NCBI GenBank assembly: GCA_964442255.1
Contig: CAYTYC010000001.1
Coordinates: 32,694 to 96,693, forward strand
Length of the DNA stretch: 64,000 bases
Reading direction: 5' to 3'
Source: an uncultured archaeon
GTDB lineage: Archaea; Iainarchaeota; Iainarchaeia; Iainarchaeales; 1-14-0-10-31-34
Position numbers: made by a program. Below, piece after piece: positions 30,001-33,000 of this stretch. Numbering within the stretch: position 1 is the stretch's first letter; each line of letters opens with the position of its first letter.

Positions 30001-33000
30001 CCCGAAATGCAGGGGCGAACTTGGAAAAGTGAAAAGGTTCAATATGATGATGTTTTTGGAGATTGGCGCAACTGGAAAACAGCTTGGAGGATTAAGGCCT
30101 GAAACCGCGCAGAATTTGTTTTTGGATTTCAGCCGGATGTTCAAGAGCATGCGCCAAAACCTTCCGCTCGGGCTGGCGCAGTCCGGAAAGGCTTTCAGGA
30201 ACGAAATCGCGCCCCGCAATACTCTACTCCGCGCCCGCGAATTCGGGCAGATGGAAATTGAAATCTTTTTTAACCCCGAAAAAATAAATGAATGCGAAAA
30301 CTTCGGGAAAATGGAAAACGAAAAAATCCGCATACTTTCCCTTAATGAAAAAAAGGAAAAGGTGTTGCGGGCAAAGGATTTGGTGGACAAAAAAATTGTT
30401 TCCGGAAAACTTGTTGCGTATTACATTGCGCGTTTGCAGGAACTTTACCTCGCTTATGGAATTCCTTTCGCTAAAATGCGTTTCCGTGAAGTTGGAGTGG
30501 ATGAGCGCGCCTTTTACTCAAAGGAAACATGGGACTTCGAGGTTGAAACCGGGTATGGCTGGATTGAACTGGTTGCGTGCAATTACCGCGGAGACTATGA
30601 TTTGAGAATGCATGGAAAGGGCTCGAAAAAGGATTTGAAGGTTAAGGAGGACGGAAAAGAGTTTGTTCCGCACATCTTTGAGCTTTCCGCTGGCCTGGAC
30701 AGGGCCTTTTTTGTTGTTCTGAACCTTTCCCTGCGCGAGGAAACCAAAAAAGGGGAAAAACGCATTTTGTTGGACATCCCTTCAGCGCTCGCCCCTTTTA
30801 CGTGCGGGGTTTTCCCTTTGGTTAAAAAGGACGGCTTGCTTGAAAAGGGGCTGGAAGTTTTTGAATTGCTTAAAGAAAACGGTTTGGATGCAGTGTTTGA
30901 TGAAAAGGGCTCAATCGGCAGAAGGTACGCGCGTGTGGATGAACTAGGGTGCCCGTATGCTGTAACCCTTGATTATGATTCTTTGGGGAAAGAGGATGTA
31001 ACTATCCGTGAAAGGAATTCCACGGAACAAAAGAGAGTGAAAATCAGGGAACTCCCGGAATTGTTGTGGAGGCTTGGGAACGGGAAAATAGTCTTTAAAG
31101 ATATTTAAGTCTTTTATGGGCCGGCTTGCGCCCTTTTCCTTTTTCTTGTTTTTGCCCCTATTGGAGGGGCGCGGTCAAGGCTTTGCAGTGCTTCAACTAT
31201 TTTTGGCTGCAGCGGTCTTCCGGGGGGCGCTTCTGAAAGCACTCTTCCCAGTGCCCTGATCTCCCTGAATGCCATGCCTTTTGTGGTTCTGTTGCCTCCC
31301 GCATTTTTCTTGGCTGCTCTTCTTTGCATTTTAAAACCATTATCTATTATATTCAAAGCCATTTAAATACTTCTTTTGCCTAATTTCTACTGCGCCCTTG
31401 TAGCTCTTTTGCCGCAGTAGCATAATGGTAATGCTCCGACCTCGTAAGTCGGTGATTGGGGGTTCGATTCCCCCTTGCGGCTCTTCACAGGAAATCTCCT
31501 CCCTTTCCAAAAGTTAATAGCCCTAAAAGCTGTTTTTTAATTGTGACTTGAGTTTATTTTGATTCTGAAACTGTAAGGGATAACTTCTTTAAAAATTTGA
31601 AGAGCTATGGAAAGTTTAGGACTTGGCGTGAATTTTATAATCATATTAGCGAAGCAAAAACTTCAATGGAGAATTATAGGTCCGGTCAATGGACTATTCC
31701 TTCCCGCCTTTTTGACAAATTGTGTGATTTGCTTCCTAGTCACTTGGAAAAACTCTTTAAATCCAAACTAAACTATAAGACTGGTAATTGGGGGCAAATC
31801 ATTGGCGGGAATATAACGTATGGTAAACACCAAGATATTTTTGAAAAGGGGCGTGCTATTGCAATCGCGAAACAAAAAGAAAATCCAAAACATGACTTTG
31901 ATTTGGATATGGAATTGACTGAGGGGCTAAGCGAATTTATCGGTTGTTTTATTGGAGATGGTTTCACTAACAATTATGGCGGAAAATATGTGGTGCAATT
32001 TGCGGGAGACAATCGATTTGATGCAGACTATTATGATGGGACAATTATTCCAATAGCCCGTTCTTTATTTGGTTTTGATAAAGCAGGCATTCGCCGTAGT
32101 GGGAATGCTTTGTGGGTTAGTTTTTATTCTAAAAGACTTTTTGAGTTTCTTACTACTGGGTTTGAGATGCCTGCTGGACTAAAATTTAACCGGGTTAGAA
32201 TTCCTGTTGAAATTCTTGAGTCGGGTCCGGAAAAAATAATCCCTTGTATTCGAGGCATGTTTGATACTGATGGTTGCGTTTTTTACGATAAACGACCGGC
32301 TTATCGTAGACCTTATATTAGAATCGAGTTAACAATGCGTAATCCCTTTTTGATTAGGCAGGTGCATTACCAGCTTAAAAAGATCGAGGTTAGGTCAAAA
32401 GTTCTTTCTGATGAGACTAGGCTGCAGATAACGGCAAGAGAGGACGTTAAGCTGTTTTTGCAGAAGATAGGGTTCTCAAACAAACGGCATAGAAACCGAA
32501 TAACCAGATTTTACCCTGAATTGGAAAAGATTACGAAGGCTAAGGGGTCTTAGCTTGGGTTAACCGGAGCAAAGCGCAGGCCGGGGGTTCGACTCCCTCC
32601 AAGGGCTTTTCACGGGAAATGTGCCCTTTCCAAACAATGTTAAATCCGGAAGCCCTTTTTCTATCGAAGCGAAAGTTTAAATTAACTTATTGCGTTAATT
32701 AACTTTACATGTTAACTAAGTGGTCCGGTGGAAAAAGAGAAAACCTTCCCGAAGTATCTGGATGCACAGGGAAAAGACTTAATCCACGGGAGGTTTGAAA
32801 GAAACAGGGAAGGAAAACCCAAGGCTTTCAGCGTGAACTGCACCTGCGAACTGGAAGGCAAAAACATGGAAATAATCCGTTTTGACTCTTCCCATGGGAG
32901 TGTTTACGTCCACAGGCTTTACAAGAAGCCGCCGAGAATTGAAGTGCTTGGAAAGGAGGTTTCATTTTCAACAATAAATGAATTTGTTTTGGAGATTGAA

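Follow-up and report, generated by a model that had tools for sequence, protein, structure and literature searches.

The closest described systems come from fungal mitochondria and from phage T4. The fungal mitochondrial mORFs (mobile endonuclease ORFs), as outlined in PMC3630166, are free-standing genes for LAGLIDADG or GIY-YIG endonucleases that displace part of a host gene and bring a foreign copy of that part with them, making gene hybrids in atp6 of Allomyces macrogynus and in atp6, atp9, cox2 and nad3 of Glomus. The native 3' end stays downstream of the insertion, unexpressed, and is closer in sequence to the genes of relatives than the inserted copy is (PMC3630166). Phage T4 SegB is a free-standing GIY-YIG homing endonuclease of demonstrated activity encoded in the T4 tRNA gene cluster; it recognizes a T stem-loop motif within a tRNA gene and spreads, along with neighboring tRNA genes, at the cost of the tRNA region in the recipient (PMC2330249, abstract).

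We analyzed a stretch of 64,000 nt (the window; contig position minus 32693 gives window position) from the 93.8% complete genome of an uncultured Iainarchaeales archaeon, here G000. We consider it probable that a foreign cassette, consisting of an endonuclease gene and a tRNA-Thr(CGU) gene, inserted into and replaced the resident tRNA-Thr(CGU) gene, presumably by cleavage and homing. As in the mORFs outlined in PMC3630166, a foreign gene copy stands upstream of the ORF with a native-like remnant downstream (29/35 positions identical to relatives' genes against 22/35 to the adjacent copy), and at several archaeal loci the reading frame continues into the sequence of the host gene. Unlike in that outline, the host gene encodes a tRNA on the chromosome of a DPANN archaeon and not a mitochondrial protein, G000 received a whole gene instead of a 3' end alone and retained a 5' remnant as well, and compatibility is achieved via the pairing of RNA stems, not via the reading frame. 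The likeness to SegB, a free-standing endonuclease associated with a tRNA gene, would extend to the mode of action only; the catalytic domain here is LAGLIDADG and not GIY-YIG (Pfam, Foldseek), SegB acts in phage co-infection, and overwritten tRNA remnants are not described for it in the abstract of PMC2330249. A literature search, with most subscription journals outside its coverage, returned no report that places LAGLIDADG genes next to those of tRNAs in DPANN archaea and no description of an endonuclease carrying a replacement for an archaeal tRNA gene.

A complete tRNA-Thr(CGU) between remnants of another

The insert of approximately 1.17 kb (31407 to about 32570) lies inside the resident tRNA-Thr(CGU) gene on the + strand, and the stretch from 31394 to 32607 consists of a 5' remnant of that gene, TTTT, a complete tRNA-Thr(CGU), a promoter, a LAGLIDADG gene and a 3' remnant. 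These parts had been placed likewise by the first-pass annotation, in agreement with the sequence and with ARAGORN, Rfam, Pfam and nhmmer. G+C content was 0.35–0.40 in the ORF region compared to 0.42–0.49 in the flanks. In contigs from two DNA metagenome runs of one study, one of them probably the source sample, the occupied form alone was present, and a single 'joint' in these contigs stems from a paralogue on contig C4; a third run of the study was without the stretch, and no RNA run was listed as containing it.

The 5' remnant (31394..31406, + strand; 13 nt read from the sequence) comprises the GCCCTTG acceptor strand, TA and the start of the D stem (GCTC). It was the sole match in the window at one mismatch or fewer, with 0.05 expected per 64 kb and a match in 5 of 100 shuffles. 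This remnant is identical to the tRNA 5' ends of G186 and G179 (13/13), has 12/13 and 11/13 identity to those of G018 and G014, respectively, and agrees with the adjacent complete tRNA at 8/13 positions. It is followed by TTTT (31407..31410, + strand), the left end of the insert, which also directly precedes the tRNA in G015 and G011. The complete tRNA-Thr(CGU) of the cassette type (31411..31482, + strand; ARAGORN end 31482/3) scored 68.1 bits against the Rfam tRNA model (E = 3.2e-14). This tRNA has a GCCGCAG/TTGCGGC acceptor and a GCAT/ATGC D stem, departs from the remnants in its 5' as well as its 3' half, and was the sole gene with a CGT anticodon found in scans of the genome.

The 3' remnant (32571..32607, + strand; 37 nt) aligned by nhmmer to positions 36–72 of a tRNA-Thr profile (E = 4.2e-6; 4.7e-5 when the whole genome was searched) and comprises the last two loop bases, the 3' strand of the anticodon stem, the variable region, the T arm, the CAAGGGC acceptor strand and a discriminator T; an Rfam tRNA search over it gave no match at E ≤ 10. 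The 29/35 identity holds for the native genes of G014 and of G186 and G179. The acceptor strands of the two remnants, GCCCTTG and CAAGGGC, pair at 7/7 positions. Together the remnants (13 + 37 nt) are without a D loop, the 5' strand of the anticodon stem and the anticodon. A bulge-helix-bulge intron was ruled out, since the flanking remnants cannot join into a tRNA and a whole tRNA is present inside the insert. Between the endonuclease stop codon and the 3' remnant are 17 nt (32554..32570, + strand; sequence read). A reading of 32551–32573, which includes the stop codon, as a D arm left over from the resident tRNA was unsupported, with 185 of 3000 control 23-mers scoring equally high; on that reading the 3' remnant would have comprised positions 8–26 plus 38–73.

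A TATA-like box, TTTAAATA (31362..31369, + strand), about 28 nt upstream of the 5' remnant, is the putative promoter of the resident tRNA, as judged from the spacing rule for archaeal promoters, and the new tRNA probably uses this promoter with a 17-nt leader. A host-type promoter is located between the complete tRNA and the endonuclease gene (31484..31519, + strand), consisting of TTCACAGGAAAT...CCAAA plus a TATA-like TTAATA 24–29 nt upstream of the ancestral start codon (profile E = 1.5e-5). At E < 0.01 the motif profile also matched 13 or more other sites in G000, the majority about 55–60 nt upstream of the start codons of unrelated genes, which indicates a host promoter element; the motif was therefore rejected as a part of the mobile element, and a second copy 3' of the 3' remnant was rejected on the same evidence as the relic of an older element. 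This second copy probably drives the DUF7718 gene that follows.

The site is anchored upstream by glyS (glycyl-tRNA synthetase; 29615..31108, + strand; Pfam tRNA-synt_2b and HGTP_anticodon). The C-terminal 149 amino acids of its product were found in 9/9 genomes of the family, and a tRNA-Thr(CGU) then follows in 7/8 relatives. Empty sites, with glyS followed by an intact tRNA-Thr(CGU) and no endonuclease, were found in the family members G011, G014, G017 and G018, and G183 was counted as a further one; besides G000, the family members G012 and G015 are occupied and contain a remnant. The first-pass annotation had named G014 as an empty site with an intact GCCCTTG/CAAGGGC tRNA next to glyS, and had reported the TGCGATT T loop of that gene in the remnants of G015 and G012 beside a complete tRNA with a GCCGCCG acceptor, both of which we confirmed; the remnant of G012 differs from the 3' half of the G014 gene at 1/35 positions by eye. 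Downstream, a gene for a DUF1616-like membrane protein (33468..33896, + strand) has 40% identity (E = 8e-36) to the gene after the intact tRNA in G018, with a weak Pfam match to DUF1616. A DUF7718/HVO_A0114 gene pair (32728–33422) precedes it and is absent from G017 and G018.

The endonuclease and its relatives

The LAGLIDADG homing-endonuclease gene is a 333-codon open frame (31552..32553, + strand) with a first in-frame start at TTG 31597 and a TAG stop at 32551–32553. Pfam assigned LAGLIDADG_3 (E = 1.5e-7) to residues 233–307, in the second half only. Comparison with G071, in which the gene begins ATG GCT AGA ATT TAC TTT GAT, revealed an ancestral start GTG-ACT followed by TGA (31543..31551, + strand), a nonsense codon at position 3, which in relatives is an almost invariant Arg. 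The first-pass annotation had proposed that the frame lost the start of its N-terminal region at this stop; the region is retained, the actual defect being the TGA at codon 3. No variant was seen at this site in contigs of the two metagenome runs. The stop suggests that the endonuclease in G000 is probably newly dead, and a gene that is open apart from codon 3 fits a fixed element starting to decay.

In an alignment of 52 sequences, the first LAGLIDADG motif (residues about 128–140; 31933..31971, + strand) has invariant E128, G131, I134, D136 and G137. The second (residues about 231–243; 32242..32280, + strand), an FDTDG with D238 and D240, has invariant G235 and D240 and nearly invariant D238, T239 and G241. 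An AlphaFold2 model (mean pLDDT 93, pTM 0.74) predicted the two-fold pseudo-symmetric alpha-beta-beta-alpha-beta-beta-alpha core together with an extra helical N-terminal domain of about 110 residues that is strongly conserved in the alignment. Foldseek with this model matched 140 PDB chains at E ≤ 0.001 with LAGLIDADG enzymes on top, including I-DmoI (TM 0.72 normalized to target), I-Tsp061I (E = 1.0e-7) and the TliVMA intein endonuclease (E = 4.0e-9); a search of the PDB by sequence gave no match at E ≤ 1. These three closest folds are all monomeric with two motifs; in contrast to them, the present gene lies in neither an intron nor an intein and its predicted product has the extra N-terminal domain. 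By its motifs and predicted fold the protein is a monomeric double-motif LAGLIDADG homing endonuclease, a type of enzyme that makes a site-specific double-strand cut in an endonuclease-free allele; with its stop at codon 3, the G000 copy may no longer do so.

A tree of 25 full-length homologues had one branch (SH-aLRT 100) that separates the 14 beside tRNA-Thr(CGU) from the 11 beside tRNA-Thr(GGU/UGU). Members of the CGU clade were found only beside tRNA-Thr(CGU), and those of its sister clade lie tail-to-tail on tRNA-Thr(GGU/UGU). The first-pass annotation had counted a tRNA-Thr beside 28 of the 30 best loci; the linkage held, while the count by ARAGORN with introns was 27. As had been reported, ARAGORN calls the tRNA of G110 an Ala with an intron. 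At G162 there was no ARAGORN call, and a match to the tRNA-Thr profile was obtained (E = 3.4e-5) with GGT read at the position of the anticodon loop. The G013 contig ends inside the ORF. The order tRNA, ORF, remnant previously noted in G015, G012, G165, G071, G110, G178, G182 and G192 was observed in all eight.

The nearest relatives of the G000 endonuclease belong to other families: it groups with that of G071 of family f11 (SH-aLRT 92) and not with those of G015 and G012 of its own family, the host phylogeny being represented in this comparison by family codes alone. Those of G165 (f24) and G110 (f13) group together; across the 3' two-thirds of the gene their DNA is 83–93% identical, and the identity profile is a mosaic. 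The element is present or absent at a homologous site, with a phylogeny that departs from that of its hosts. Close homologues of the CGU-linked clade (E ≤ 1e-50) are scattered over families in which other members have none, and 66 of 196 genomes are without an endonuclease match even at E ≤ 1e-5. Frames are truncated in G179, G186 and G192, and other matches contain internal stops.

A 3' remnant was present in half of the 18 CGU-clade loci with downstream sequence and absent from the other nine. In the relatives the duplicated unit is usually the 3' part of the tRNA only, with remnants that begin at profile positions 25–42, and no 5' remnant was seen by eye at other loci; the 5' remnant and the replacement of a whole gene are special to the G000 locus. 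The ORFs of G015, G182 and G192 extend into the remnant and terminate at a TAA from the former anticodon loop; for G182 and G192, the differences between complete tRNA and remnant lie mainly in the acceptor. Intact native tRNA-Thr genes of other families also have remnant-like 3' halves, so the similarity of remnants between families is no proof of co-transfer, and a transfer of the remnant together with the endonuclease between G165 and G110 is unprovable.

The 5'-half pattern of the cassette-type tRNA was found in seven of 196 genomes from four families, in six of them adjoining the CGU-linked endonuclease clade; as the pattern was derived from the endonuclease-linked tRNAs themselves, the informative part is its absence from the other 189 genomes. 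G013 has a cassette-type tRNA without an adjacent endonuclease, and the nearest relative of the G000 endonuclease, in G071, adjoins a native-type tRNA. The latter indicates that endonuclease and tRNA are not always transferred as a unit, and their histories are not fully congruent.

Possible histories of the insert

The reading of the first-pass annotation, a mobile cassette that replaced the resident gene, is supported by the nesting of the parts, native-like remnants, empty syntenic sites and the endonuclease's relatives in other families. The enzyme would cut endonuclease-free tRNA-Thr(CGU) genes, probably near the boundary of the D arm and the anticodon arm, since the remnants of relatives begin there. 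Repair of the break on a donor template would copy in the cassette, upon which the cassette tRNA, with its different acceptor and D stem, would assume the function and the old 3' part would be displaced downstream as a dead remnant. The left junction in G000 would be illegitimate, with 13 nt of the old 5' end retained, so that a whole foreign tRNA would have entered and not a chimera.

An alternative that departs from this explanation in the order of events only is that the mobile unit was the 3' part of a tRNA plus the endonuclease, inserted near positions 26/27, and that the replacement of the whole gene and the 5' remnant in G000 came later by gene conversion or rearrangement. The relatives' 3' remnants without a 5' counterpart by eye, the predominance of acceptor differences in G182 and G192 and the mosaic profile of G165 and G110 agree with such a sequence of steps. 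In G000, however, the complete tRNA is unlike the remnants in both halves and its acceptor stem is self-consistent, and only TTTT stands between this tRNA and the 5' remnant, most simply the outcome of one event that brought a whole gene; we judge the two-step order unlikely. It is slightly harder still to maintain that no tRNA travelled, and that, along lines raised in the first-pass annotation, the resident tRNA was duplicated in tandem, the endonuclease landed in one copy and the copies diverged. Partial tRNA duplicates are common in G000 (e.g., a 17-nt duplicate of the 3' end of tRNA-Ala on contig C31) and the tRNA of G013 occurs without the endonuclease, as a purely local history would allow, but a tandem duplication gives no 13-nt 5' piece upstream with a matching 3' piece 1.2 kb downstream. 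In addition, the non-functional remnants are nearer to the native genes of relatives (29/35, 13/13) than the presumably functional copy is (22/35, 8/13), this copy has compensatory changes in its acceptor, and the same tRNA type stands beside the endonuclease clade in four families while absent from the 189 other genomes.

The linkage to tRNA-Thr could also reflect function instead of mobility, if the protein were a domesticated LAGLIDADG protein acting on tRNA-Thr as a WhiA-like regulator or an RNA maturase. The strict linkage (27/30 best loci by ARAGORN) and the strongly conserved N-terminal domain fit such a role, the Foldseek list has the bI3 maturase at rank 3 and WhiA at rank 27, and one database homologue is labeled WhiA by its source. 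The scattered distribution of the homologues, the empty sites in relatives of the family, the invariant motif aspartates, the remnants of displaced genes that adjoin the endonuclease, the broken copies (the codon-3 stop in G000 among them) and an endonuclease tree that departs from the family assignments all argue for a mobile enzyme, and domestication is accordingly very improbable. Least probable of all, to the point where we give it little weight, is an integrase-driven island with the remnants as its attachment-site repeats. tRNA genes are classical integration sites, and the downstream DUF7718/HVO_A0114 pair missing from G017 and G018 could be read as island content. Among the ORFs scanned between 28.7 and 35 kb there was no integrase-like ORF or domain, however, and the repeated tRNA parts match at 22/35 positions where attachment repeats would be identical; integration at a 3' end yields no 5' remnant, and the insert contains the tRNA and the endonuclease gene only.

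A possible drive on tRNA-Thr genes

Beyond the replacement at this locus, we tentatively raise the possibility of a natural 'cut-and-rescue' drive, on balance doubtful at present, in which endonuclease clades would each attack the gene of one tRNA-Thr isoacceptor and carry a cleavage-resistant tRNA or part of one. Such a drive would overwrite even divergent alleles across families, make the host dependent on the tRNA of the cassette and be a main cause of an unusually fast turnover of tRNA-Thr(CGU) sequences in these archaea, as in genus g2 with its three acceptor stems. The insertions would in addition offer a way for tRNA genes in archaea to be broken up or split. In synthetic 'cleave and rescue' elements a nuclease that destroys an essential gene is linked to a still-working version of it. 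The present locus would share this linkage of a nuclease with a gene version that presumably works, and differs in being natural, haploid and horizontally spread, with a rescue copy that may be resistant.

If the mechanism holds, homing endonucleases could safely invade RNA genes assumed to be essential without introns or inteins, by carrying a replacement gene, which would extend to archaeal chromosomes a trick known from fungal mitochondrial protein genes and a phage tRNA cluster. The mechanism would also explain the large differences in tRNA-Thr(CGU) between close relatives, point to a definite origin for fragments of tRNA genes in DPANN genomes, and offer natural enzymes with specificities of about 20 bp for tRNA genes. 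With the two ends of the overwritten gene still in place, the present locus would illustrate the mechanism especially clearly.

The anticodon arm is identical between complete tRNA and remnant in genus g73, which leaves resistance of the cassette tRNA unexplained there. For the GGU/UGU clade, a reverse-strand upstream remnant was weak in the G000 paralogue on contig C4 (17/124 controls as high) and in G167 (19/118), and was clear in one of 11 loci (G046; 0/124). Within genus g2, three different acceptor stems of the tRNA were present among five species.

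The tRNA-Thr(CGU) site behind glyS

Behind glyS, the window (C1:32694-96693 of the 1.28-Mb, 93.8% complete genome G000) carries two pieces of a tRNA-Thr(CGU) gene around a complete tRNA gene and a LAGLIDADG open frame. Window positions equal contig positions minus 32693. Direct reading of 31200-32800 gave a 13-nt 5' remnant (31394-31406; GCCCTTG-TA-GCTC) followed by TTTT and then by a complete tRNA-Thr(CGU) (31411-31482) that was called by ARAGORN and matched the Rfam tRNA model with 68.1 bits (E 3.2e-14). A 69-nt spacer separates this tRNA from an open frame of 333 codons (31552-32553; Pfam LAGLIDADG_3, E 1.5e-7), and 17 nt of unassigned origin lead to a 37-nt 3' remnant (32571-32607). 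The 3' remnant corresponds to positions 36-72 of a tRNA-Thr(CGU) gene profile (E 4.2e-6, and 4.7e-5 when the whole genome was searched), and the CAAGGGC of its acceptor strand complements the acceptor piece of the 5' remnant exactly. At up to one mismatch the 5' remnant 13-mer has a single match in the window, with 0.05 expected. The order remnant, tRNA, LAGLIDADG gene, remnant, as described in the first-pass annotation, was borne out and is not a product of chance.

The glyS-tRNA site is syntenic throughout the family, with glyS present in 9 of 9 genomes and tRNA-Thr(CGU) next to it in seven of the eight relatives. Four of these (G011, G014, G017 and G018) represent empty sites, with an intact tRNA after glyS and no endonuclease gene behind it, and the window gene at 33468-33896 is homologous to the post-tRNA gene of G018 (40% identity, E 8e-36). 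In G000 the interval from glyS to the tRNA is longer by approximately 200 bases than in relatives, where it measures 40-130 nt, and an 82-codon ORF on the minus strand (31114-31362) with no Pfam match fills the additional bases.

Over the last 35 nt, the 3' remnant shared 29 positions with the native gene of G014 and 29 with those of G186/G179, compared to 22 with the adjacent complete tRNA. The 5' remnant agreed with G186/G179 at 13/13 positions, G018 at 12/13 and G014 at 11/13, compared to 8/13 for the complete tRNA. The latter is self-consistent (acceptor stem GCCGCAG/TTGCGGC, D stem GCAT/ATGC) and was the sole CGT-anticodon tRNA found in the 93.8% complete genome. The nesting of a new gene and an endonuclease gene between the old 5' and 3' ends is the arrangement expected from an insertion into the old gene. 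Since a TATA-like box lies at 31362-31369, about 28 nt upstream of the 5' remnant, the old promoter probably drives the new tRNA, whose transcript would have a 17-nt leader.

The endonuclease and its family

Homologues of the endonuclease were detected (E ≤ 1e-5) in 130 of the 196 genomes of the order. Among the 30 best loci, 27 directly adjoin a tRNA-Thr according to ARAGORN with introns allowed, one fewer than the first-pass annotation had counted; its record of an Ala call at the G110 locus stood, the tRNA there having the loop CTCGTAA and being miscalled. The G162 locus had no ARAGORN call, but matched the tRNA-Thr profile (E 3.4e-5) with GGT, by eye, at the anticodon-loop position, and in G013 the contig ends inside the ORF. 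In a tree of 25 full-length sequences (six partial rows, L017, L018, L022, L023, L026 and L028, were dropped), a single branch with an SH-aLRT of 100 split 14 genes from 11 by the anticodon of the tRNA-Thr. Each of the 14 lies downstream of tRNA-Thr(CGU) in the same orientation, whereas each of the 11 is tail-to-tail with a tRNA-Thr(GGU or UGU), the 3' end of which it overlaps. The G000 endonuclease pairs with that of G071 from another family (SH-aLRT 92) and not with those of G015/G012 from its own. G165 and G110, also of different families, share 83-93% DNA identity in the 3' two-thirds of the gene with unrelated flanks.

A 3' remnant was found at half (9/18) of the CGU-clade loci having downstream sequence, beginning at profile positions 25-42, and a decayed remnant was seen by eye in G180. 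In G015, G182 and G192 the ORF continues into the remnant, where a TAA in the former anticodon loop is its stop codon. The remnant of G015/G012 has the unusual T loop and the acceptor of the intact gene of their congener G014, whereas their complete tRNA belongs to another type; genus g2 holds three distinct acceptor stems in five species. A 5' remnant was seen in G000 only, and at none of the other loci inspected by eye.

The AlphaFold2 model, built from 52 aligned homologues, was confident (mean pLDDT 93), and a PDB sequence search gave no match. By Foldseek, its C-terminal two-thirds fall among monomeric LAGLIDADG enzymes, including the TliVMA intein endonuclease (E 4e-9), I-Tsp061I and I-DmoI (TM 0.72 of target). 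The motif aspartates D136 and D240 are both invariant in the 52-sequence alignment, and the N-terminal ~110 residues form an additional helical domain conserved in the family. The N-terminal defect noted in the first-pass annotation is a stop codon and not a lost region: where the closest relative G071 begins with ATG-GCT-AGA, the ancestral start in G000 is GTG-ACT-TGA, so that codon 3, otherwise a nearly invariant Arg, is nonsense. A TTG at 31597 is the next start in this frame, and the remainder of the frame is open. The contigs of two sequencing runs contained no variant at the nonsense codon. We read this as a recent inactivation of the endonuclease, the fate to be expected of such an element at a late stage. 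Within the gene, position 32506 was polymorphic (A/G, depth 3.7 of 7.1) in one run's contigs.

G000 encodes two further LAGLIDADG genes. One, a member of the same endonuclease family (L002, C4:11490-12587; 37% identity), is tail-to-tail on a tRNA called Ser(GCU) by ARAGORN, which a TTGGTAT loop and a 15-nt intron identify as tRNA-Thr(GGU), and its final 12 codons are antisense to the 3' part of that tRNA. A possible 20-nt reverse-strand remnant upstream of it was not significant (17 of 124 controls scored as high). The other, more distant gene (L003, C31:1-1356) is split into two frames; it terminates at the 5' end of a tRNA-Ala(CGC) that contains a G3:U70 pair, and the 3' end of this tRNA has a 17-nt exact duplicate ~55 nt downstream, after a small hairpin, at the contig end.

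In family f32 (L009 of G178, 1457-1461; L013 of G182, 1454-1461; other loci of genus g73) the complete tRNA ends 1-6 nt before the endonuclease start codon and there is no promoter in between, which suggests that the endonuclease is co-transcribed with the tRNA and that tRNA 3' processing may free a nearly leaderless mRNA.

Predicted route of insertion

When the 5' half of the G000-type tRNA was written as a pattern, with GCCGCNG as acceptor and GCAY/ATGC as D stem, matches came from only seven of the 196 genomes, in four families. Six of these tRNAs adjoin this endonuclease clade, and the seventh carrier, G013, is a congener of G012/G015 with a site without the endonuclease; as the pattern was written from those very sequences, what is informative is solely that the remaining 189 genomes lack it. 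Contrary to a tRNA that always travels with the gene, G071, with the nearest endonuclease, has a native-type tRNA with an intron, and in genus g73 one anticodon arm is common to the complete tRNA, the remnant and the gene at the empty site of G183. The general unit of the family seems to consist of the ORF and the 3' part of the tRNA, the 5' part being co-converted variably, and G000 would be the case in which a whole foreign gene entered and 13 nt of the old 5' end stayed.

The enzyme is predicted to cut endonuclease-free tRNA-Thr(CGU) genes near the boundary of the D arm and anticodon arm. The break would be repaired from a cassette-bearing donor, with the tRNA sequences flanking the ORF on both sides as homology, and between incompatible stems of donor and recipient the only events to survive would be those importing the whole donor tRNA. 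This mechanism as a whole is, we think, what locus anatomy and known homing-endonuclease behaviour point to.

The first-pass annotation had proposed that a LAGLIDADG cassette with its own tRNA-Thr(CGU) overwrote the resident gene. Support comes from how the parts are nested, from remnants of native type, from empty sites and from the spread across families, and no rival (tandem duplication, secondary rearrangement, a domesticated regulator or an integrase island) accounts for all of these jointly; a tandem duplication, in particular, would not place a new gene and endonuclease between an old 5' end and an old 3' end. We consider a mobile cassette of endonuclease and replacement tRNA quite likely; cleavage by the enzyme, its target and the resistance of the cassette tRNA are predictions.

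The closest mechanism is that of fungal mitochondrial mobile endonuclease ORFs, which enter atp6, atp9, cox2 or nad3 and bring a foreign C-terminal gene part, leaving downstream a native C-terminus that is more like relatives than the inserted copy is (PMC3630166). Phage T4 SegB is a free-standing endonuclease whose recognition motif is a tRNA T stem-loop and which spreads along with neighbouring tRNA genes (PMC2330249). In a literature search with most subscription journals outside its coverage, no report was found of tRNA genes of DPANN archaea being targeted by LAGLIDADG genes.

Promoter element and neighbouring sequences

A conserved motif that resembles a promoter (TTCACAGGAAAT..GCCCC..CCAAA, with a TATA-like box after it) is present at 31484-31519 and 32608-32650. 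The TTCACAGGAAAT element lies about 55-60 nt upstream of the start codons of many unrelated G000 genes; its profile found 16 sites in G000 at E < 0.01 (three training sites included), with the element present on contigs C20, C48, C9, C14, C8, C3, C7, C31 and C6. Endonuclease homologues in other families (G015, G167, G046, G095, G009) have the element upstream as well.

Between the 3' remnant and a DUF1616-like gene lies a DUF7718 and HVO_A0114 (HTH) gene pair (32728-33422), absent at the same place in G017 and G018, that has the look of a small module, either mobile or toxin-antitoxin-like. A further gene on C20, DUF7718-like by eye only, stands behind the same promoter motif.

Downstream of tRNA-Thr(CGU) at locus L042 of G013, two more tRNA-like 3' remnants with other acceptors surround a ~0.9-kb reverse-strand ORF, and G016 has no tRNA behind glyS and a ~1.2-kb reverse-strand ORF instead; the glyS-tRNA site appears to be an insertion hot spot in the genus. 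Outside the window, at C1:21395-23623, a tRNA-Leu(UAA) interrupted by a 2137-nt intron is proposed by ARAGORN when introns are allowed; a search with the endonuclease family HMM found no LAGLIDADG homologue there. Many other G000 tRNAs have introns, of 14-260 nt.
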